Positions 2,763 to 13,454 of a stretch of DNA of 18,662 bases are shown here, piece by piece. This DNA is from a virus (lineage: Duplodnaviria; Heunggongvirae; Uroviricota; Caudoviricetes). Each line of letters opens with the position of its first letter. Positions within the stretch are counted from its first letter, which is position 1. The DNA lies in IMG/VR virus record IMGVR_UViG_3300010259_000013, positions 1-18,662 of that record; one strand, given 5' to 3'. Under the pieces are notes generated by a model, which did not search any database, had not been told where the DNA came from, and worked only from the letters and a program-made list of their open reading frames with translations. The position numbers were made by a program, and so were the translations under genes.

Positions 2763-2987
2763 ATGCATACAGTTTCTGAAAATCAGTGCGGTAAATACGC
2801 ATTACTGCTGCAACAGGCCAGAACCGAAGCACAGGCCGACGCGGCGACGCGCTTTTCTTCTCATCTTGACGCCATGATTCGCCACATCACAAAGGCGGAG
2901 TTATCCCGCGTGGAGATAGTCGAGCTGCTCAGTCAGGAGTCGGAAAAATTTCACAATATCGGATTGTCTCGCGGGGAGGTACTTTGA
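2763..2987 (+). CDS. Hypothetical early protein (P2 orf80-83 family position)
   Basis: The ORF-track start at 2730 is TTG. The first ATG is 2763, with GGAG six nt upstream. Its stop overlaps the next start (ATGA-type coupling). Confidence 0.6.
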
Positions 2988-3289
2988 TGTCCTGTTCTCA
3001 TTCAGTTGTATTACTGAATAACGCCTTAAAAATCGCCGTTATGAAAAATGGCGATTTGTCTCTTATTCAACTTTGTCTTGATAAAGAAAAACGCGACATA
3101 ACTGAATCTGTTATCGCGATTTATCAGAATGAATTAAACCTCCTGTCTGATGTGGTCAATTTACTTGTTAAACGCGCTGTATTCCACAAGCAAATTTCCT
3201 CAGTGGATGAACTGACACAATTAACGACAGAAATCGCCAGCTATTGCGCTGATGAATTTAAGAAACTGAACGACAAAAGGAGCTGGTAA
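2987..3289 (+). CDS. Hypothetical early protein
   Basis: ATG at 2987 overlaps the upstream TGA; the stop overlaps the next ATG (TAATG). Synteny with the P2 early operon. Confidence 0.6.
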   Translation: MSCSHSVVLLNNALKIAVMKNGDLSLIQLCLDKEKRDITESVIAIYQNELNLLSDVVNLLVKRAVFHKQISSVDELTQLTTEIASYCADEFKKLNDKRSW

Positions 3290-3513: not shown

Positions 3514-3785
3514 GTATTCGTATTGAAATTGGCGAACGTTATGTCGTTACCAGTGACAGCTTTCAGTTTATTCTCCACGAGAAAAAGAGAGCGGAAAGCG
3601 GTAAAAACGCCGGTCAGGAATGGCTGGCGGTGGTTGGTTATTACCCGAAATTAAGTCAGCTCGTTTCCGGCCTGATGCATCACGATATTCTGACCGGAAG
3701 CGCAAAATCTTTTGCCGATTTAAACGCGCAGGTTGAGCAACTCAGCAGGCGTTGTTCAGAGGCTTTTGGCTCATATGGCCGTTAA
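3510..3785 (+). CDS. Hypothetical early protein immediately upstream of A
   Basis: 91-aa ORF. Start overlaps the upstream stop (ATGA); the 3' end overlaps the A start. Confidence 0.6.
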   Translation: MSIRIEIGERYVVTSDSFQFILHEKKRAESGKNAGQEWLAVVGYYPKLSQLVSGLMHHDILTGSAKSFADLNAQVEQLSRRCSEAFGSYGR

Positions 3786-6060
3786 AGCCTCCGGGCGTTT
3801 TGTCCCTCCGTCAGCATTTGCTGCAGGCACCGGTAAGGCGTTTACCGGTGCTTATGCATGGAACGCGCCACGCGAGGCTGTCGGGCGCGAAAGACCCCTT
3901 ACACGTGACGAGATGCGTCAGGTGCAAGGTGTTTTATCCACGATTAACCGCCTGCCTTACTTTTTGCGCTCGCTGTTTACGTCACGCTATGACTACATCC
4001 GGCGCAATAAAAGCCCGGTGCACGGGTTTTATTTCCTCACATCCACTTTTCAGCGTCGTTTATGGCCGCGCATTGAGCGTGTGAATCAGCGCCATGAAAT
4101 GAACACCGACGCGTCGATGCTGTTTCTGGCTGAGCGTGACCACTATGCGCGCCTGCCGGGGATGAATGACAAGGAGCTGAAAAAGTTTGCCGCCCGTATC
4201 TCATCGCAGCTTTTCATGATGTATGAGGAACTCTGCGATGCATGGGTTGATGCACATGGCGAGAAAGAATCGCTGTTTACGGATGAGGCGCAGGCGCATC
4301 TGTATGGTCATGTTGCTGGCGCTGCACGTGCTTTCAATATTTCCCCGCTCTACTGGAAAAAATACCGTAAAGGACAGATGACCACGAGGCAGGCATATTC
4401 TGCCATTGCCCGTCTGTTTAACGATGAGTGGTGGACTCATCAGCTTAAAGGCCAGCGTATGCGCTGGCATGAGGCGTTACTGATTGCTGTCGGGGAGGTC
4501 AATAAAGACCGTTCTCCTTATGCCAGTAAACATGCCATTCGTGATGTGCGTGCACGCCGCCAGGCAAATCTGGAATTTCTTAAATCGTGTGACCTCGAAA
4601 ACAGGGAAACCGGCGAGCGCATCGACCTTATCAGTAAGGTGATGGGCAGTATTTCTAATCCTGAAATTCGCCGGATGGAGCTGATGAACACCATCGCCGG
4701 TATTGAGCGTTACGCCGCCGCAGAGGGTGATGTGGGGATGTTTATCACGCTGACCGCGCCGTCAAAGTATCACCCGACACGTCAGGTCGGAAAAGGCGAA
4801 AGTAAAACCGTCCAGCTAAATCACGGCTGGAATGATGAGGCATTTAATCCAAAGGATGCGCAGCGTTATCTCTGCCGTATCTGGAGCCTGATGCGCACGG
4901 CATTCAAGGATAATGATTTACAGGTCTACGGTTTGCGAGTCGTCGAGCCACACCACGACGGAACGCCGCACTGGCATATGATGCTTTTTTGTAATCCACG
5001 CCAGCGTAACCAGATTATCGAAATCATGCGTCGCTATGCGCTCAAAGAGGATGGTGACGAAAGAGGAGCCGCGCGAAACCGTTTTCAGGCAAAACACCTT
5101 AACCGGGGCGGTGCTGCGGGATATATCGCGAAATACATCTCAAAAAACATCGATGGCTATGCACTGGATGGTCAGCTCGATAACGATACCGGCAGGCCGC
5201 TGAAAGACACCGCAGCGGCTGTTACCGCATGGGCGTCAACGTGGCGCATCCCGCAATTTAAAACGGTTGGCCTGCCGACAATGGGGGCTTACCGTGAACT
5301 ACGCAAATTGCCTCGCGGCGTCAGCATTGCTGATGAGTTTGACGAGCGCGTCGAGGCTGCACGCGCCGCCGCAGACAGTGGTGATTTTGCGTTGTATATC
5401 AGCGCGCAGGGCGGGGCAAATGTCCCGCGCGATTGTCAGACTGTCAGGGTCGCCCGTAGCCCGTCGGATGAAGTTAACGAGTACGAGGAAGAAGTCGAGA
5501 GAGTGGTCGGCATTTACGCGCCGCATCTCGGCGCGCGTCATATTCATATCACCAGAACGACGGACTGGCGCATTGTGCCGAAAGTTCCGGTCGTTGAGCC
5601 TTTGACTTTAAAAAGCGGCATCGCCGCGCCTCGGAGTCCTGTCAATAACTGTGGAAAACTCACCGGTGGTGATACTTCGTTACCGGCTCCCACACCTTCA
5701 GAGCACGCCGCAGCAGTGCTTAATCTGGTTGATGACGGTGTTATCGAATGGAATGACCAGGAGGTCGTGAAGGCGCTAAGGGGCGCATTAAAACACGGAC
5801 TGAGAACACCAAATCGTCAGCAAAGAGCCGGAAGCCCGTTAAAACCGCATGAAATAGCGCCATCGGCCAGAATGACCCGGTCGGAACGAATGCAAATTAC
5901 CCGTATCCGCGTTGACCTTGCTCAGAACGGTATCAGGCCGCAGCGATGGGTGCTTGAGGCGCTGGCGCGTGGCGCGACCGTAAATTATGACGGGAAAAAA
6001 TTCACGTATCCGGTCGCTGATGAGTGGCCGGGATTCTCAACAGTAATGGAGTGGAAATGA
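3775..6060 (+). CDS. A: Replication initiation protein A, rolling-circle HUH endonuclease (P2 A-like)
   Basis: ORF 3733-6060. Starting at ATG 3775 (MAVKASGRF...) gives 761 aa, matching P2 A. HUH-type motif PHWHMMLF and paired tyrosines YIAKYISK. In P2 the ori lies inside this gene; I could not place it from sequence. Confidence 0.92.
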   Translation: MAVKASGRFVPPSAFAAGTGKAFTGAYAWNAPREAVGRERPLTRDEMRQVQGVLSTINRLPYFLRSLFTSRYDYIRRNKSPVHGFYFLTSTFQRRLWPRIERVNQRHEMNTDASMLFLAERDHYARLPGMNDKELKKFAARISSQLFMMYEELCDAWVDAHGEKESLFTDEAQAHLYGHVAGAARAFNISPLYWKKYRKGQMTTRQAYSAIARLFNDEWWTHQLKGQRMRWHEALLIAVGEVNKDRSPYASKHAIRDVRARRQANLEFLKSCDLENRETGERIDLISKVMGSISNPEIRRMELMNTIAGIERYAAAEGDVGMFITLTAPSKYHPTRQVGKGESKTVQLNHGWNDEAFNPKDAQRYLCRIWSLMRTAFKDNDLQVYGLRVVEPHHDGTPHWHMMLFCNPRQRNQIIEIMRRYALKEDGDERGAARNRFQAKHLNRGGAAGYIAKYISKNIDGYALDGQLDNDTGRPLKDTAAAVTAWASTWRIPQFKTVGLPTMGAYRELRKLPRGVSIADEFDERVEAARAAADSGDFALYISAQGGANVPRDCQTVRVARSPSDEVNEYEEEVERVVGIYAPHLGARHIHITRTTDWRIVPKVPVVEPLTLKSGIAAPRSPVNNCGKLTGGDTSLPAPTPSEHAAAVLNLVDDGVIEWNDQEVVKALRGALKHGLRTPNRQQRAGSPLKPHEIAPSARMTRSERMQITRIRVDLAQNGIRPQRWVLEALARGATVNYDGKKFTYPVADEWPGFSTVMEWK

Positions 6061-6512
6061 TGGCAAAAATTCACGAGGTAAAGCTGCACGCAAAATATTT
6101 TGACCTTGTGCTGGAAGGAAAGAAACGCGCAGAGTTTCGGAAAAATGACCGTAATTATGAGCGCGGGGACACGTTGATTTTGCATGAATGGGTGCAGGGT
6201 GTGTTTACGGGGCGAAAGGTTGAAGCCCGGATAACAGATGTTACTGACCTGTCAGACTGGCTGGAAGATTATGTCTTGCTAAGTATTGAGCTGCTTAATA
6301 CGGGCGCATATAAGATTGTGAACTGGAAAGAACTTAGTGAGCGTGGCCTGGTATTCAGAATTAATCATGAAATTATGCATCAGCTCGGCCTTGCTGTTAT
6401 GTATGAACCAGAGACGGGGATGTCTGGCGGGGCAATGGTTGCCACGGATGGAGTATGGATCTATTCAGATGAACAGATGGAGCGTGCACAGCAAAACGGG
6501 TGGCTCGGATAA
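6057..6512 (+). CDS. DUF3850/ASCH-like protein
   Basis: Tandem ATGs at 6057 and 6060 overlap the A stop. The N-terminal segment IHEVKLHAKYFDLVLEGKKRAEFRKNDRNYERGDTL resembles the DUF3850 signature. Confidence 0.65.
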   Translation: MMAKIHEVKLHAKYFDLVLEGKKRAEFRKNDRNYERGDTLILHEWVQGVFTGRKVEARITDVTDLSDWLEDYVLLSIELLNTGAYKIVNWKELSERGLVFRINHEIMHQLGLAVMYEPETGMSGGAMVATDGVWIYSDEQMERAQQNGWLG

Positions 6513-6566
6513 TGCACAGAATACCAGGCGAGATACCGCACCATAAAAACTAAAAATATCAAGCTG

Positions 6567-6725
6567 ATGGCCATTGTTCACCGTCTACAGCAGATTATGG
6601 TCAACGAAAATCTGACGCCCGATGAACTAGTCGGGTGTGCCGAAATAGTCCGGGATAATTACGGGCGACTTAACTATATCGGTATCGGTCAGTCCAGAGT
6701 TGCGCCACCACCACGCAGACGATAG
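6567..6725 (+). CDS. Possible small ORF (52 aa), weak
   Basis: ATG at 6567 to TAG at 6723-6725; the stop sits five bp before palindromic element copy 1. No clear Shine-Dalgarno. Below the ORF-track size cutoff. Confidence 0.2.
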   Translation: MAIVHRLQQIMVNENLTPDELVGCAEIVRDNYGRLNYIGIGQSRVAPPPRRR

Positions 6726-6729
6726 AGAA

Positions 6730-6796
6730 CGCCGCCAGTCGTGAAACTTGTTTTCAGGGCTGGCGGCGTTGAACAACGAGCGAAGCGAGGCGTTAG
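6730..6796. repeat. Palindromic element copy 1: ~17-bp imperfect hairpin (CGCCGCCAG...CTGGCGGCG) plus conserved 28-bp tail ending GAGGCGTTAG
   Basis: Seen in sequence. Stem 6730-6768 with inner arm TGAAAC/GTTTTCA. About 80% identical to copy 2 over ~67 bp. Confidence 0.8.
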
Positions 6797-6954
6797 TTGA
6801 CAGTCATATTTTTACTGCGTTGGTGCTGGTTTTTGACGGTTGAAAGGAGTTAGCCCGGAGAGCAAAAGCCAACAACTTACAAATATTCAAAAGTAAGCTT
6901 CCTGTTGCTAACATAAGGTCGATTTTTTATGTGGATGATGCAAAAAGGATAGCT

Positions 6955-7686
6955 ATGGATATTGTAATCGCTTTTCTATCACTCGCTTTTTTCGTTGCTT
7001 TTTTCATCGGGTTAATCAAGCCATCACTGGTGCGGATGCCAAACCGTAAACGTGCAAGTGCGGTTTATCTCGGAGGTAGTTTTGCATTGAGCATAATTGG
7101 TTCAATACTCTACCCAACAGAAAAAAGCCAGCCAGTTGCTAAAACTGAAACAGCAACCGTAGCAGAACACCAGGCTCAAAAAACATTCGAATATACTGAA
7201 AAAACACTCAAGGAATATCGGAACGAGCCAAAGAAGACTCGACACGATATTGTGAATAGTTACATTAACTTTAAGAAAGTGCCAGTCACCGCATCAGATG
7301 CATTTTATGCCTGCATGAGTGAGTATACATTTACCAAAGATGATGAGTTGAAACTCGGTGATGTTCTTGGGTGGTGCTTTAATGATTATGAAAATGACCC
7401 GAATTCATTAAACAATAAAATCAATCTTGATACATTTCAGAGTAATTTTAGTGGTTGGGATGGTTCTTATCGGCCATTGGAAAAATTAATTAAAGATAAT
7501 ATGAACGATGATTCATCTTATAAACATGTGTCAACGGTATATCATTTGGTTTTGAATAAAGACCCGCACGCCATTGTGAAAACCACGTTTCGCGGCACTA
7601 ATGCTTATGGTGGAGTGGTAAAGCAGACCGTAGCGGCGCGCGTCAACGTGCGAACGGGGGAGGTCGATTCGATACTCGACAATTAA
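6955..7686 (+). CDS. Membrane-anchored cargo protein 1 (two predicted N-terminal TM helices, ~180-aa soluble C-terminal domain), unknown function
   Basis: The ORF-track start at 6931 is GTG. The first ATG is 6955, with AAAGGA five nt upstream. Hydrophobic stretches IVIAFLSLAFFVAFFIGLI and AVYLGGSFALSIIGSILY. AT-rich codon usage unlike the backbone. Confidence 0.7.
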   Translation: MDIVIAFLSLAFFVAFFIGLIKPSLVRMPNRKRASAVYLGGSFALSIIGSILYPTEKSQPVAKTETATVAEHQAQKTFEYTEKTLKEYRNEPKKTRHDIVNSYINFKKVPVTASDAFYACMSEYTFTKDDELKLGDVLGWCFNDYENDPNSLNNKINLDTFQSNFSGWDGSYRPLEKLIKDNMNDDSSYKHVSTVYHLVLNKDPHAIVKTTFRGTNAYGGVVKQTVAARVNVRTGEVDSILDN

Positions 7687-7702
7687 ACAATATAGTGACA
7701 TA

Positions 7703-7769
7703 CCCCGCCAGTACTGAAACTTGTTTTCAGTGCTGGCGGGGTTAAACAAAGAGCATCGTGAGGCGTTAG
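7703..7769. repeat. Palindromic element copy 2: near-perfect 39-bp palindrome (CCCCGCCAGTACTGAAAC-ttg-GTTTTCAGTGCTGGCGGGG) plus conserved tail ending GAGGCGTTAG
   Basis: Seen in sequence. 17-bp stem with one G-T wobble. Sits 16 bp after the stop of cargo protein 1 and 25 bp before the start of cargo protein 2. Confidence 0.8.
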
Positions 7770-7794
7770 ATTAAAATCATTTGAGGCAGATAAA

Positions 7795-8457
7795 ATGCTT
7801 TGGAAAATAATTTCTTTTTTATTAGTTGGTATTTGTATGTTTGCTTTCGGTTTATGGTTAGGCTCTATTCAGGCTGAATGGGCGAAACCAGAGCATAAAG
7901 ATGCTGTTGCTTATTTAGCAATGATCGGAGGATGGGTCTCAGGAATTGCAACGTCAGTCGCAGTAATTATTTCATTGTATGCGACATACCAAGCATCACA
8001 GAATAATGTTGAAAAATTAAGTTTAACCTATAAGCCTTACTCTAGCGTAGACAAAGAAAATTATTGTGCCAATATTGAGGTTGTAAATTTGCGGAGCGTT
8101 CCGGTACATATACAAGAGTTTTGCTTAGAATTTAGTGGGATAAATAATCATTTCAACATAAACGAACTAAAAGCAAATGGGAAGGAGATCCCGTATTCTT
8201 TATACCAAGTAGGAGAGAAATGGGAGTTTGCCTTCTATCCTTTTGCAAAGCCGGGAAATATGAGGTTCTATAAAAGCTTAAGTGAGAATGGTAATCCAAG
8301 TTTTCGTAGTGGTTTCTTTGTGGTTAAAACATCAATGAAACAATACAAATTAAGGATGCCTAATGAGCTTTTGGAAATTATGAAAATTAGCTATGAAAAG
8401 CAAATGGAAATACGGAAGAATTATAAGGAAATGCATGGTAAAGAGATGGGCTTTTAA
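7795..8457 (+). CDS. Membrane-anchored cargo protein 2 (two predicted N-terminal TM helices, ~150-aa soluble C-terminal domain), unknown function
   Basis: ATG at 7795 with GAGG eight nt upstream. Hydrophobic stretches IISFLLVGICMFAFGLWLG and AVAYLAMIGGWVSGIATSVAVIISLYA. AT-rich. Confidence 0.7.
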   Translation: MLWKIISFLLVGICMFAFGLWLGSIQAEWAKPEHKDAVAYLAMIGGWVSGIATSVAVIISLYATYQASQNNVEKLSLTYKPYSSVDKENYCANIEVVNLRSVPVHIQEFCLEFSGINNHFNINELKANGKEIPYSLYQVGEKWEFAFYPFAKPGNMRFYKSLSENGNPSFRSGFFVVKTSMKQYKLRMPNELLEIMKISYEKQMEIRKNYKEMHGKEMGF

Positions 8458-8580
8458 AACGCATTAACAAGCATCAAATTGCATGCGCATCCCTCCCCTG
8501 TTGTGTTTGAGCGCTGCCAGTGATGGTGTGCCTCTGGCGTGTTCGTGCAACTGCATTAAAACCGCCCCATGAAGCGGGCG

Positions 8581-8599
8581 GGCGAGGCGGGGAAAGCAT
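8581..8599. other. cos cohesive-end site (P2/186 type)
   Basis: GGCGAGGCGGGGAAAGCAT matches the 19-nt P2/186 cohesive end as I recall it (the P2 last base may be C). It sits in a GC-rich, backbone-like block upstream of the Q/P packaging genes. Confidence 0.7.
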
Positions 8600-8676
8600 T
8601 GCGCTGGACCTAGAGGCTTTGCTATCTTATTTGATGTTATTGGTATTTATTCAATTGAATGACCGTAGAGGATGAA

Positions 8677-9273
8677 ATGTGTCACATTGAAATTTTTCGG
8701 GAAGCACTAACAGTAAAGGATCCTATATATATATACAGGAAGTATCTTTTAGGGCATGACGTGTGGTATTTTAGAAATAAATTGGGAAAATTAAATTATG
8801 CAGAGGTTTATGATGATCTTAAGATACTTATGTCAGAAAGATTAGGTGTTCACATTAATAATGTTGCTATTGTTGGAAGTGCGAAGTTAGGATTTAGCAT
8901 AACACCCACAGAAGATAAAGCCTTTAGAGAGTTTAACGAAGATAGTGATATTGATATTGTTGTCGTATCCCCTGAGCTTTTTAGAAAGTCTTGGGATGCA
9001 TATCTTGATGTGGCAAAAAGACAAAGAATACCTTATTACTATAAAATCACAAGCAATATATTTAGAAAGTTTGTATCCTTAAAGAATATTGATTATAATA
9101 ATGAATTCTTTCGAGATTGGAAAAACAAAATAGAACCTTGTCAAAAAGATTTGCAGGTTATATATGAAGTACCGAACGAGATTAACTATAGAATATATGA
9201 GTCTTGGGAGGATGTGGAACGCTATCATGTTCAAGGCTTAGAAAAACTTAAAAACTTAATGGGGCAAATTTAA
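8677..9273 (+). CDS. Putative minimal nucleotidyltransferase (Pol-beta-superfamily-like) cargo protein
   Basis: ORF 8659-9273. The better start is ATG 8677 (AGAGGA upstream), giving 198 aa. Candidate NTase motif hhGS...DxD: VAIVGSAKLG (8875-8892) and DSDIDIVVV (8941-8958), with a longer-than-usual insert between. AT-rich. Stop is one nt before the next ATG. Confidence 0.55.
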   Translation: MCHIEIFREALTVKDPIYIYRKYLLGHDVWYFRNKLGKLNYAEVYDDLKILMSERLGVHINNVAIVGSAKLGFSITPTEDKAFREFNEDSDIDIVVVSPELFRKSWDAYLDVAKRQRIPYYYKITSNIFRKFVSLKNIDYNNEFFRDWKNKIEPCQKDLQVIYEVPNEINYRIYESWEDVERYHVQGLEKLKNLMGQI

Positions 9274-9274
9274 A

Positions 9275-10336
9275 ATGAGTATTGTGAGAAACGTTAAAGT
9301 TGAAAGCAGAGATATAAAGTGGGTATCTGATAATTTTAAGTCAGGCGAGTTGGTTATTGATAATTCATTTCAAAGGCGATATGTTTGGGTTAAAAAAGAT
9401 AAAGTATCGTTAATTGAATCAATACTCCTCGGTTATCCTATTCCTGAAGTTTATCTGTGGCAAAATAAGACCGATCCTGAAACAGGGCAGAGAATTCATT
9501 CTATTGTTGATGGGCAGCAACGATTAGGTGCGGTTTTTGATTTTGTAACAGATAAGTTTGCATTAGAAAAACGTTATCTAGAATATAAGGATTCTGATTT
9601 TTCTGGAAAAAAATTTTCTGAATTAGATACAGAACAAAAAGCTGTTATCTGGGGATATGATTTTTCAATTCGATTTATTAATAATGATATAACTATTGAT
9701 GACATTAAAAATTTATTTCTTCGTCTTAATAGAACTAATATAACTCTTAACCCTCAAGAGTTAAGGAATGCGGAATTTAATGGTGAGTTTATTAAATTGG
9801 CGAGCTCTTTGTCGGAACATCAATTTTGGACAGAGTTCAAGGTGTTCAACTCATCTGACTTGAGACGAATGCTTGATATCCAGTTTATTAGTACTATGTT
9901 AATATTTATTAGAATGGGTATTGCTGAAGAAACATCCCAGGCGGCTATTAACAAAGTTTATGATCAATATAATGAAACGTATCCAGAGGCTGAACAAGAT
10001 AAAGAGTTGTTCATGGATTTGCTAAATCTGCTTGCTAATATGATAAGGGGTAAGCAATCTCTTGAATATATTGCAAAAAGAAAAACACACCTCTATACAT
10101 TATTTACATTGTCTTTTTACTTATTTAAAACTGGTATTGATTCTGATAGTGGGTACCAAAATGTAGCTGTAAAATTGGATGAGTGGTTTAATAATTATAT
10201 AAATGAGGTGGATTTTGATGATGAGATGGTTAACGTTTTATTAAATGAATATCGTACGCTTTCCCAAGAAGGCGTGCAGAAAAAGCAAAATAGGCAACGG
10301 AGACTGGATATTTTGAAGGGTTATATAACCATGTAA
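9275..10336 (+). CDS. DUF262 / ParB-like (GmrS-like NTPase fold) protein lacking a recognisable DUF1524/HNH nuclease domain
   Basis: 353 aa. N-terminal FQRRYVW and the hallmark DGQQR motif (9508-9522) of the DUF262 family. No His-Me/HNH motif seen in the C-terminal ~150 aa. Translationally coupled to the upstream NTase-like gene. Confidence 0.75.
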   Translation: MSIVRNVKVESRDIKWVSDNFKSGELVIDNSFQRRYVWVKKDKVSLIESILLGYPIPEVYLWQNKTDPETGQRIHSIVDGQQRLGAVFDFVTDKFALEKRYLEYKDSDFSGKKFSELDTEQKAVIWGYDFSIRFINNDITIDDIKNLFLRLNRTNITLNPQELRNAEFNGEFIKLASSLSEHQFWTEFKVFNSSDLRRMLDIQFISTMLIFIRMGIAEETSQAAINKVYDQYNETYPEAEQDKELFMDLLNLLANMIRGKQSLEYIAKRKTHLYTLFTLSFYLFKTGIDSDSGYQNVAVKLDEWFNNYINEVDFDDEMVNVLLNEYRTLSQEGVQKKQNRQRRLDILKGYITM

Positions 10337-10340
10337 TTAT

Positions 10341-10367
10341 CCCCCCCCCCTAGTATTTAGGAGGGGG
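10341..10367. repeat. C10 homopolymer (10341-10350) facing a GGAGGGGG run (10360-10367); potential C/G stem-loop just 3' of the DUF262 gene
   Basis: Seen in sequence, four bp after the DUF262 stop. Could form a GC stem with an A/T-rich loop. No T-tract follows. Confidence 0.5.
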
Positions 10368-10445
10368 CATGGCTTATTGGCTAAAGTTTTTCAGGTTTAT
10401 TTATTGAACTTGAGAATATACTTATAATTAAACAAGAGGATTATG

Positions 10446-10469
10446 AATAAAAAGCCGCCCGCAGGCGGC
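10446..10469 (-). terminator. Intrinsic terminator for the leftward Q-P late operon
   Basis: On the minus strand: stem GCCGCC-tgcg-GGCGGC (plus 10454-10469) followed by TTTTTATT (plus 10446-10453), five bp after the Q stop. Confidence 0.7.
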
Positions 10470-10474
10470 GATGT

Positions 10475-11509
10475 TCAGCCGTTGTCAGTGTCCAGTGAGT
10501 AGTTTTTAAATCGGATGACCTCCTGACCGAGCCAGCCGTTTATCTCGCGGATCCTGTCCTGTAACGGGATAAGCTCATTGCGGACAAAGACCTTTGCCAC
10601 TTTCTCAATATCACCCAGCGACCCGACGTTCTCCGGCTTGCCACCCATCAACTGAAAGGGGATGCGGTGTGCGTCCAGCAGGTCAGCGGCGCTGGCTTTT
10701 TTGATATTAAAAAAATCGTCCTTCGTTGCCACTTCACTGAGGGGGATAATTTTAATGCCGTCGGCTTTCCCCTGCGGGGCATAGAGAAACAGATTTTTAA
10801 AGTTATTGCGGCCTTTCGACTTAACCATGTTTTCGCGGAGCATTTCGATATCGTTGCGATCCTGCACGGCATCAGTGACGTACATGATATATCCGGCATG
10901 CGCGCCGTTTTCGTAATACTTGCGGCGGAACAGCGTGGCTGATTCATTCAGCCAGGCAGAGTTAAGGGCGCTGAGATATTCCGGCAGACCGTACAGCTCC
11001 TGATTAATATCCGGCTCCAGCAGGTGAAACACGGAGCCGGGCGCGAAAGGTGTCGGCTCGTTGAAGGACGGCACCCACCAGTAAACATCCTCCTCCACGC
11101 CACGGCGGGTATATTTTGCCGGTGAGGTTTCCAGTCTGATGACCTTACCGGTGGTGCTGTAACGCTTTTCCAGAAACGCATTACCGAATACCAGAAAATC
11201 CAGCACAAAGCGGCTGAAATCCTGCTGAGAAAGCCACGGGTGTGGGATAAACGTTGAGGCCAGAATATTACGTTTGACGTAAATCGGTGAGCTGTGATGC
11301 ACGGCAGCACGCAGGCTTTTTGCCAGACCGGTAAAGCTGACCGGTGGCTCATACCATCTGCCGTTACTGATGCACTCGACGTAATCCAGAATGTCACGGC
11401 GGTCGAGTACCGGCACCGGCTCACCAAAGGTGAATGCCTCCATTTTCGGGGCGCTGGCGGTCATTTTTTTTGCCGCAGGTTGCGGTGTTTTCCCTTTTTT
11501 CTTGCTCAT
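10475..11509 (-). CDS. Q: Portal protein (P2 Q-like)
   Basis: 344-aa ORF, same length as P2 Q. Its ATG overlaps the P stop (ATGA). Synteny Q-P divergent from O-N-M-L. Confidence 0.92.
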   Translation of the reverse strand: MSKKKGKTPQPAAKKMTASAPKMEAFTFGEPVPVLDRRDILDYVECISNGRWYEPPVSFTGLAKSLRAAVHHSSPIYVKRNILASTFIPHPWLSQQDFSRFVLDFLVFGNAFLEKRYSTTGKVIRLETSPAKYTRRGVEEDVYWWVPSFNEPTPFAPGSVFHLLEPDINQELYGLPEYLSALNSAWLNESATLFRRKYYENGAHAGYIMYVTDAVQDRNDIEMLRENMVKSKGRNNFKNLFLYAPQGKADGIKIIPLSEVATKDDFFNIKKASAADLLDAHRIPFQLMGGKPENVGSLGDIEKVAKVFVRNELIPLQDRIREINGWLGQEVIRFKNYSLDTDNG

Positions 11510-13281
11510 CAGTAAAACTCCAGAATGGTGGATGTCAGCGGGGTGCTGATACCGGCGGTGAGTGGCTCATTTAACAGGGCGTGCATGGTCGCCCAGGCGA
11601 GGTCGGCGTGGCTGGCTTCCTCGCTACGGCTGGCCTCATAGGTGGCGCTGCGTCCGCTGCTGGTCATGGTCTTGCGGATAGCCATAAACGAGCTGGTGAT
11701 GTCGGTGGCGCTGACGTCATATTCCAGACAGCCACGGCGGATGACGTCTTTTGCCTTGAGCACCATTGCGGTTTTCATTTCCGGCGTGTAGCGGATATCG
11801 CGCGCGGCGGGATAGAACGAGCGCACGAGCTGGAACACGCCGACACCGAGGCCGGTGGCATCAATTCCGATGTATTCGACGTTGTATTTTTCGGTGAGTT
11901 TGCGGATGGATTCCGCCTGAGTGGCAAAGTCCATGCCTTTCCACTGGTGACGCTCAAGTATTCTGAATTTACCTCCGGCCACCACCGGCGGTGCCAGCAC
12001 CACGCATCCGGCGCTGTCGCCACGGTGTGACGGGTCGTAACCAATCCATACCGGGCGGGAGCCGAACGGATTGGCGGCAAACGGCGCATAGTCTTCCCAT
12101 TCTTCCAGCGTGTCGACCATGCAGCGTTGCAGCTCCTCGAACGGGAACACCGACGCCTTGTCGTCAACAAATTCACACATGAACAGGTTTTTAAAATCGT
12201 CGGCGCTGTTTTCACGTTTGAGCTGCTCAATGTCGAACAGCGTGCAGCCACCTTTCAGGGCGTCCTCAATGGTGACAATCTGCCGCCACTGGCCGTCCGC
12301 ACAGAGAAGCCCCCCGGCAAGGGCGTTATGACTGACGTCGATTTCCACGCGTTCGGCGGCGCTGGCGCGTCCCCGGTTGAACAGTTCACCCGACCAGAAT
12401 GGGTAGGCGTCGTGCGCCAGCGTGGACGGGGTGGAGAAATAGGTCGAGCGCAGGTGGCTCTGTGAGGCCATACCTGATGCCACCTTACGCAGTACCTGAA
12501 AATTCGGGATCCAGAAAATCTCGTCGACGTACAGGTCGCCGTTATGGCTCTGTGCGGTGTTGGAGTTGGTGCCGAGAAAAATCAGTTTTGCGCCGTTATT
12601 GCCCAGGACAATCGGGTCACCGGTCAGGTCAACGTCAACCAGCCGGGCAAAGGCGATGATGTATTCGCGGAACACATACGCCTGCGTTTTACTGGCCGAC
12701 AGAAAAATCTGGTTATGACCGGTTTTCAGGGCGCGCAGCAGCGCCTCGCGGGAAAAATAAAACGTCGCGCCAATCTGGCGGGATTTCAGGATATCGCGGA
12801 TGCGGTGCTCAAGCCCGGCGCGATACCAGTGCAACTGATAGTCGAAAGACTGCTCAAAGAAAATCTGCTCCAGCTTTTCGATGGCCTCGTCACTGAAAAA
12901 ATTCTTTTTCGGTTTGCGCCGCCCGCCTTTGTTGCGGTTAGCGACGTTCGGATTAAGGTCTGCCTCGTTGCCGGTCTGGCTGTAGCGGTTGACCCGTGCC
13001 AGTCGTTCAATCTGGCGTCCCAGCAGGTCAATTTCCTTGAAGTCACTGCCGGTTTTCTGCGGTTTGATGATGAGCTGGGTCAGCCGCGCTTCCAGGCTCA
13101 TTTCCACACGGCTGATGGGGGCAACACTGTCCCAGCCGTCGCGCTGTTTCCAGCTCTGCACCGTCGGGCGTTTCATCTGCAACATGGCGGCAATCTGCGG
13201 CACGGAAAACCCCTGCCAGTACAGCAGCGCCGCCTGACGACGCGGGTCGTGTAAAAGAGTGGTGTCTGTGGTGATGGTCAT
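11509..13281 (-). CDS. P: Terminase large (ATPase) subunit (P2 P-like)
   Basis: The ORF-track start at 13311 is TTG. The first ATG is 13281 (MTITTDTTLL...), giving 590 aa, matching P2 P. Confidence 0.92.
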   Translation of the reverse strand: MTITTDTTLLHDPRRQAALLYWQGFSVPQIAAMLQMKRPTVQSWKQRDGWDSVAPISRVEMSLEARLTQLIIKPQKTGSDFKEIDLLGRQIERLARVNRYSQTGNEADLNPNVANRNKGGRRKPKKNFFSDEAIEKLEQIFFEQSFDYQLHWYRAGLEHRIRDILKSRQIGATFYFSREALLRALKTGHNQIFLSASKTQAYVFREYIIAFARLVDVDLTGDPIVLGNNGAKLIFLGTNSNTAQSHNGDLYVDEIFWIPNFQVLRKVASGMASQSHLRSTYFSTPSTLAHDAYPFWSGELFNRGRASAAERVEIDVSHNALAGGLLCADGQWRQIVTIEDALKGGCTLFDIEQLKRENSADDFKNLFMCEFVDDKASVFPFEELQRCMVDTLEEWEDYAPFAANPFGSRPVWIGYDPSHRGDSAGCVVLAPPVVAGGKFRILERHQWKGMDFATQAESIRKLTEKYNVEYIGIDATGLGVGVFQLVRSFYPAARDIRYTPEMKTAMVLKAKDVIRRGCLEYDVSATDITSSFMAIRKTMTSSGRSATYEASRSEEASHADLAWATMHALLNEPLTAGISTPLTSTILEFY

Positions 13282-13454
13282 GAATACCTCGCCGTGATGA
13301 ATACACGGCAAGGCTACTGAGTCGCGCCCCGCGATTCGCTAAGGTGCTGTTGTGTCAGTGATAAGCCATCCGGGACTGATGGCGGAGGATGCGCATCGTC
13401 GGGAAACTGATGCCGACATGTGACTCCTCTAATCACTATTCAGGACTCCTGACA
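13282..13454. promoter_or_regulatory. Divergent late-promoter region (PP leftward, PO rightward), presumably Ogr-activated
   Basis: 173-bp intergenic region between divergent P and O. One partial Ogr-like TGT-N12-CCA element at 13351-13368. Hexamers could not be assigned confidently. Confidence 0.45.

Follow-up and report, generated by a model that had tools for sequence, protein, structure and literature searches.

A length-variable C tract in a probable operon-end stem-loop of a cos-adjacent two-gene cassette from an Escherichia coli P2-like prophage

[quoted passage not shown] The locus described here has the layout of this hotspot, in that low-GC variable genes lie between gpA and gpQ beside cos and the same type of cassette is found beside cos in P4-like satellites. 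It differs in that the cassette occupies the Q side of cos, whereas P2 old/tin lie on the A side. It also departs from the published picture in which closely related defence genes are almost never common to P2 and P4 (Moura de Sousa et al. 2026, PMC13586616), as the gene pair in this cassette is found in both at 65-77% amino acid identity.

Menshen (NsnABC; PMC12065111) offers a second point of comparison. An NsnA-like ParB-DUF262 protein is present here, but NsnB (ABC ATPase/DUF3696) and NsnC (inPIN plus nuclease) are not; the pair is flanked by cos and Q, and the sole partner is a nucleotidyltransferase-fold protein of 198-204 aa.

The cassette ends in a hairpin that contains ten consecutive C residues, and this feature can be compared with two known classes of element. 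Like intrinsic terminators and 3' stabilising stem-loops, it is a GC-rich stem-loop a few nucleotides after the last stop codon, in the same place as the terminators of related satellite cassettes. Unlike them, it has no U-tract, fails a consensus scan and has one arm that is a pure homopolymer. With the contingency loci of Neisseria, Haemophilus, Bordetella and Campylobacter it shares a G/C run of at least nine bases, length polymorphism from strain to strain and invariant flanks. The tract here, however, lies outside any ORF or promoter spacer and has no predicted structural effect, which is the behaviour of a neutral microsatellite.

The window (the whole stretch of 18,662 nucleotides that was analysed) is an E. 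coli P2-like prophage, with the integrase at 203-1216, replication gene A at 3733-6060 and terminase P at 11509-13311. Its left flank is found in 5405 of 5426 complete E. coli genomes, and public sources name its proteins as E. coli. The features in and around the cassette are as follows.

8581-8599, plus strand: cos cohesive-end sequence of the P2-like prophage (GGCGAGGCGGGGAAAGCAT), with one mismatch to P2 cosL/cosR
8607-10448, plus strand: two-gene cassette, 32% GC, between cos and Q, recognised by the gap in P2 homology and by composition
8659-9273, plus strand: nucleotidyltransferase-fold gene, 204 aa (198 aa from 8677 in other assemblies), with a weak match to Pfam NTP_transf_2 (E 8e-4)
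9275-10336, plus strand: ParB/DUF262 (GmrSD_N) gene, NsnA-like, with no nuclease domain (Pfam PF03235, E 3.5e-22)
10454-10469, minus strand: tQ, the intrinsic terminator of the late P-Q operon and the first P2 backbone right of the cassette (terminator scan, homology)
10475-11509, minus strand: portal gene Q

The cos flank 'gcattaaaaccgcccc.tgaagcgggc' likewise agrees with the right end of P2. Homology to P2 stops after 8606 and resumes at 10449 with tQ (P2 position 161; annotated in P2 at 160-181), and the 1.84-kb cassette replaces P2 nucleotides ~27-160. None of the 5426 complete RefSeq E. coli genomes carries the cassette, although 1640 of them have the Q segment. The exact cassette protein has entries in 206 blocks of the contig index of the collection.

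On the A side of cos, the hotspot cargo at 6024-8457 comprises three ORFs. That at 6024-6512 encodes an ASCH/DUF3850+DUF7415 protein, and those at 6931-7686 and 7795-8457 have no Pfam or PADLOC match. A 79-nt direct repeat (6729-6807 and 7702-7780, 81% identity) is also found on this side, each copy following one of two successive cargo ORFs and forming a hairpin with 18-19-nt arms that show compensatory changes. A tail similar to this repeat occurs in L031, one of the related loci (GGGGTTAAACAA...GAGGCGTAAG). It is possible that the repeat marks cassette boundaries or serves as a terminator in the hotspot. In some E. coli assemblies (L039-L041, 2702-3420), the same cassette and hairpin adjoin a portal gene cut to 136 aa, and this truncated portal abuts tail genes (TAC_7, gpE, tape measure) directly. 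These are presumably deleted, defective prophages that still keep the cassette.

The DUF262 protein matches PADLOC NsnA over nearly its full length (2.8e-40, residues 7-343), and its motif residues QR, DGQQR and FxxxN are invariant in A1. The nucleotidyltransferase-fold partner has no PADLOC match. Both genes are kept in nearly all of ~70 distinct related loci from many bacteria, with the nucleotidyltransferase-fold homologue directly upstream of the DUF262 gene, and judged from these comparisons the two look like an undescribed candidate defence pair. The only PADLOC matches to the DUF262 protein were NsnA/PD-T4-2_A. The pair (~200 aa plus ~353 aa) lies immediately right of cos in the window, in P2/186-like phages and in P4-like satellites (L015-L026, L031-L035).

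The closest relatives of the DUF262 protein, at 76-77% amino acid identity, are encoded by P4-like satellites of Klebsiella, Edwardsiella and Cronobacter, where the cassette lies between psu/cos and int. Others, at 65-77%, come from P2/186-like phages with the same order of cos, cassette and Q. Species-representative genomes contain relatives of at most 46% identity only, and these are without the C/G hairpin. Two of the P4-like loci from Klebsiella and Edwardsiella (L015 and L020) carry two cos-like sites ~400 bp apart at ~2800-3200 (GGCGAGGCGGGGAAAGCAC/T and GGCGAGGCGGGGAAAACAC / GGCGAGGCGGGGAAAGCAC), each with an upstream 'GCATGA/TAAAACCGxCCCAxGAAGCGxGC' context.

The DUF262 gene ends in TAA at 10334-10336, followed by TTAT and then the C10 tract, which thus begins 4 nt past the stop codon; the stem begins ~7-10 nt past it. 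The nine nucleotides between the tract and the G-rich arm read TAGTATTTA (10351-10359). The elements of this region are listed below.

10341-10350, plus strand: C10 homopolymer, the 5' arm of the hairpin, length-polymorphic (C9-C12), from sequence reading and assembly comparison
10343-10367, plus strand: stem-loop of the C-run and UA paired with UAGG and GGGGG, with A10362 bulged and a 5-nt loop, from the RNA fold
10360-10367, plus strand: GGAGGGGG, the 3' arm of the hairpin, also Shine-Dalgarno-like and 1 nt before ATG 10369
10320-10381, plus strand: possible extended stem AACCAUG / CAUGG-CUU around the C/G hairpin, followed by UAAAGUUUUUC, from prediction only
10388-10416, plus strand: A/U-rich 12-bp hairpin in the 3' spacer, from the RNA fold

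The first-pass annotation had described a strong stem-loop without a U-tract, and this is borne out by the sequence and by the fold of RNA 10334-10375, in which a 9-bp stem (7 G-C and 2 A-U, with one bulged A and the 5-nt loop) reaches a minimum free energy of -15.7 kcal/mol. The minus-strand RNA of the hairpin is more stable, at -20.0 kcal/mol. Against dinucleotide-preserving shuffles the hairpin is unremarkable (z -0.4, no better than the shuffles), because its stability comes from the C and G runs themselves. The extended 81-nt fold (-22.2 kcal/mol) gives z -0.65, and the fold of 10337-10475 (-47.6 kcal/mol) gives z -3.67. C10 is the sole C/G homopolymer of at least 7 bases in the 18.7-kb window, where no homopolymer of any other base is as long. 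Runs of at least 10 C or G are expected 0.03 times per whole window and 1.7e-4 times per cassette of 32% GC, and a run of 10 was reached in 47 of 2000 window shuffles. The tract, rather than the fold, is what exceeds chance.

With a GC-rich stem of this length soon after a stop codon, the hairpin has one element of an intrinsic terminator. The U-tract expected directly 3' of the stem is absent (the flank reads CAUGGCUUAUUGG), and a consensus terminator scan of the plus strand from the DUF262 gene to Q (10337-10475) returned no site. A U5 run does occur further on, 20 nt past the GGAGGGGG arm and 5 nt beyond the predicted extended stem. Several other roles for this segment were considered and rejected. 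The base composition of the spacer does not point to a Rho-utilisation site, as C (17) is outnumbered by G (22) and nothing but the run itself favours C over G. A dispersed palindromic repeat of the REP/BIME type is excluded by the lack of copies elsewhere, as blastn with 10325-10450 left the hairpin part unmatched both in the 5426 complete E. coli genomes and in the phage collection; no further copies of the exact 3' spacer were found in IMG/VR and JGI metagenomes. The covariance models of Rfam 15 gave no match in 10300-10480, and the sole match in 8450-10520 was P9 at cos, at chance level (E 0.88).

The position of the hairpin gains meaning from what follows the related cassettes. In three P4-like lineages a canonical terminator stands 5-6 nt after the orthologous gene, with arms (GCCTCCC/GGGCGGC, GCCACCC/GGGTGGC and CCCTGCCC/GGGCAGGG) that show compensatory changes. 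In the P2/186-like relatives, where 39-57 nt separate the gene from Q, this gap holds unrelated GC hairpins, and at many more distant loci a hairpin also follows soon after the stop codon. Compared in this way, the C/G hairpin is the positional equivalent of the 3' hairpins of its relatives, minus the U-tract. The suggestion that the cargo operon has its RNA 3'-end structure here is therefore plausible by position.

The length of the tract differs between isolates, as had been anticipated. Among 13 E. coli assemblies with the cassette, C9 occurs in three, C10 in two (the window included), C11 in six and C12 in two, while the 3' spacer is otherwise identical in all 13. Eight sequences compared over window 6275-11188 differ at three SNP columns and at a single indel site, which is the tract; over 2.8 kb the tract is likewise the only internal indel among all 13 sequences. 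All other homopolymers of 6-8 bases keep a constant length among the sequences compared. When the assemblies are grouped by haplotype, the lengths are distributed as follows.

Group I, the window's own haplotype, identical at all SNP sites: 10, 10, 11, 11, 12
Group II, the 9171-G lineage: 9, 9, 9
Group III, the P0122 lineage: 11, 11, 11, 11, 12

Pure sequencing noise is disfavoured, because the lengths partly follow haplotype. Within what assemblies alone can tell, heritable slippage far faster than substitution fits these lengths better than random read error does, with some error possible. The length has no bearing on the predicted structure: the minimum free energy stays between -15.5 and -16.4 kcal/mol across C7-C14, because only ~7 C can pair with GGAGGGGG plus UA/UA.

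Taken together, these observations are best explained, with a probability of roughly 60% for the joint reading, by the operon-end stem-loop of an acquired two-gene cassette, carrying a slippage-prone tract of neutral length. The C-run and the G-rich run would be the two arms of a stable stem-loop marking the 3' end of a horizontally acquired cassette, which lies in the cos-adjacent hotspot, with cos on one side and the convergent late gene Q on the other. The hairpin stands where related cassettes have an intrinsic terminator. As it is without a U-tract, we infer that it would most likely act as a 3'-end stabiliser or as a weak, partial terminator/insulator for the cassette mRNA. The homopolymer would have grown beyond the threshold of instability and would now drift between 9 and 12 C among isolates; the shorter runs in related copies of the motif (described below) keep a constant length, as such a dependence on length predicts. 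This variation is probably selectively neutral and no switch, because no ORF, promoter or predicted fold changes with it. In this view the C/G structure is most likely nothing more than the ordinary hairpin of an operon end, with a neutral, hypermutable homopolymer in it. The missing U-tract and the unremarkable z-score of the fold count against this explanation, as does an inverted motif upstream of the closest relatives (described below), which a generic 3'-end hairpin leaves unexplained.

The best surviving alternative, although we consider it rather unlikely, is that the length differences are mainly sequencing or assembly errors at a real G/C homopolymer and not biological slippage. Short-read chemistry is error-prone at long G/C runs. 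One 571-kb contig (L042) ends 10 nt before the C tract, at the equivalent of window 10330, and several database proteins of the cassette's cluster are 'partial', cut at contig ends, which suggests that the tract breaks some short-read assemblies. The proneness to assembly error noted in the first-pass annotation is hinted at by that contig end. The haplotype-linked lengths speak against pure noise. Random error would not yield 9 in all three members of the 9171-G lineage against 11 or 12 throughout the P0122 lineage, and independent samples agree. Moreover, real slippage is expected in E. coli at G/C runs of at least nine bases.

A different possibility is raised by the P4-like satellites. There, the same motif of 17-23 nt as in the hairpin, C-run-T(A/G)GT(A)TTTAGGAGG, is present in all 12 copies of the cassette from three lineages, inverted relative to the genes in each. 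It lies ~90 nt upstream of the start of the nucleotidyltransferase-fold gene and 16 nt from a TTGACT -35 element. An exact-pattern scan of all IMG/VR returned only three unrelated matches, and no copy with up to two substitutions was found in 834 kb of other related loci; because of this rarity, the match is very unlikely to be due to chance. In both settings the neighbouring late operon (sid-delta-psu for the satellites, P-Q for the window) is on the strand that reads 5'-CCUCC...GGGGGG-3'. The motif could therefore be a functional cis element, either a protein-binding site or an insulator against late read-through, inherited with a cassette that moves between P4-like satellites and P2-like phages.

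We regard such a role as unlikely. The shared polarity has a prior of 50%, and the similarity ends at ~20-23 nt. Local alignment of the 3' spacer with the satellite upstream region is marginal against shuffles (L023 scores 34 against a shuffle maximum of 27, L015 28 against 33), and extended homology between the two was rejected, as just the ~20-nt motif aligns. Structural conservation was rejected as well: the satellite copies fold weakly or have lost the hairpin altogether (-2 to -9 kcal/mol), and no compensatory changes accompany this. P4 itself and the P2/186-like relatives L031, L033 and L035 lack the motif, neither it nor a long G/C run stands beside the more distant cassettes among 168 loci, and no Rfam match was obtained in the region of the satellite copies. 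The runs in these copies are shorter and invariant (C6 in five loci, C7 in three, CCCCGCCCC in four). From these sequences we read the motif as a short stretch passed on by inheritance, in which the C and G runs would have lengthened in the E. coli lineage to the point where the C-run lost its stability. A stronger version, in which the motif is a dedicated travelling cis element that always keeps the same polarity to the late operon and insulates the cassette from late read-through, with C/G expansion in the E. coli lineage making this insulation heritably tunable, is more doubtful still.

Less probable again is that the tract serves as a phase-variation (contingency) switch for the cassette, an antisense RNA or a 12-codon ORF. 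In its favour, a long G/C homopolymer that is length-polymorphic among closely related isolates is what such loci display, and the C-run would sequester the GGAGG that shortly precedes ATG 10369. The tract, however, lies past the stop codon, rather than inside an ORF or at promoter elements. A coding role was rejected, as no ORF of at least 20 aa crosses it on either strand and the ORF opened by GGAGG and ATG 10369 has just 12 codons (10369-10407) with no counterpart in the satellite motif copies. A promoter-spacer role was rejected too, as inspection by scan and by eye of both strands over 10337-10475 found no -35/-10 pair bracketing the tract. The length-independent fold energy also speaks against a switch, and contingency loci are, to our knowledge, not typical of E. 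coli. Lastly, we give very little credence to the earlier proposal of a recombination scar at the cargo/backbone junction: a short spacer separates the cargo gene from the phage backbone and the hairpin does sit in it, and protein-level homology to related cassettes ends at the stop codon just before the tract, but P2 homology resumes only 81 bp further right, which places the hairpin inside the cargo, the left junction (8606/8607) lies beside cos, and the motif has homologues elsewhere and was therefore not made de novo at a junction.

The reading of the hairpin as an operon-end structure implies that a cassette that settles between cos and Q either comes with a 3' hairpin of its own or evolves one, at the place where it meets the convergent late operon. 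The tract is a hypervariable marker, and equally a trap for assembly and variant calling, in a widespread E. coli prophage lineage, and indels called at it should not be over-interpreted. The context of the cassette is of more interest than the tract itself, as it bears on the question of whether helper phages and their satellites trade cargo by way of the only sequence that they share.
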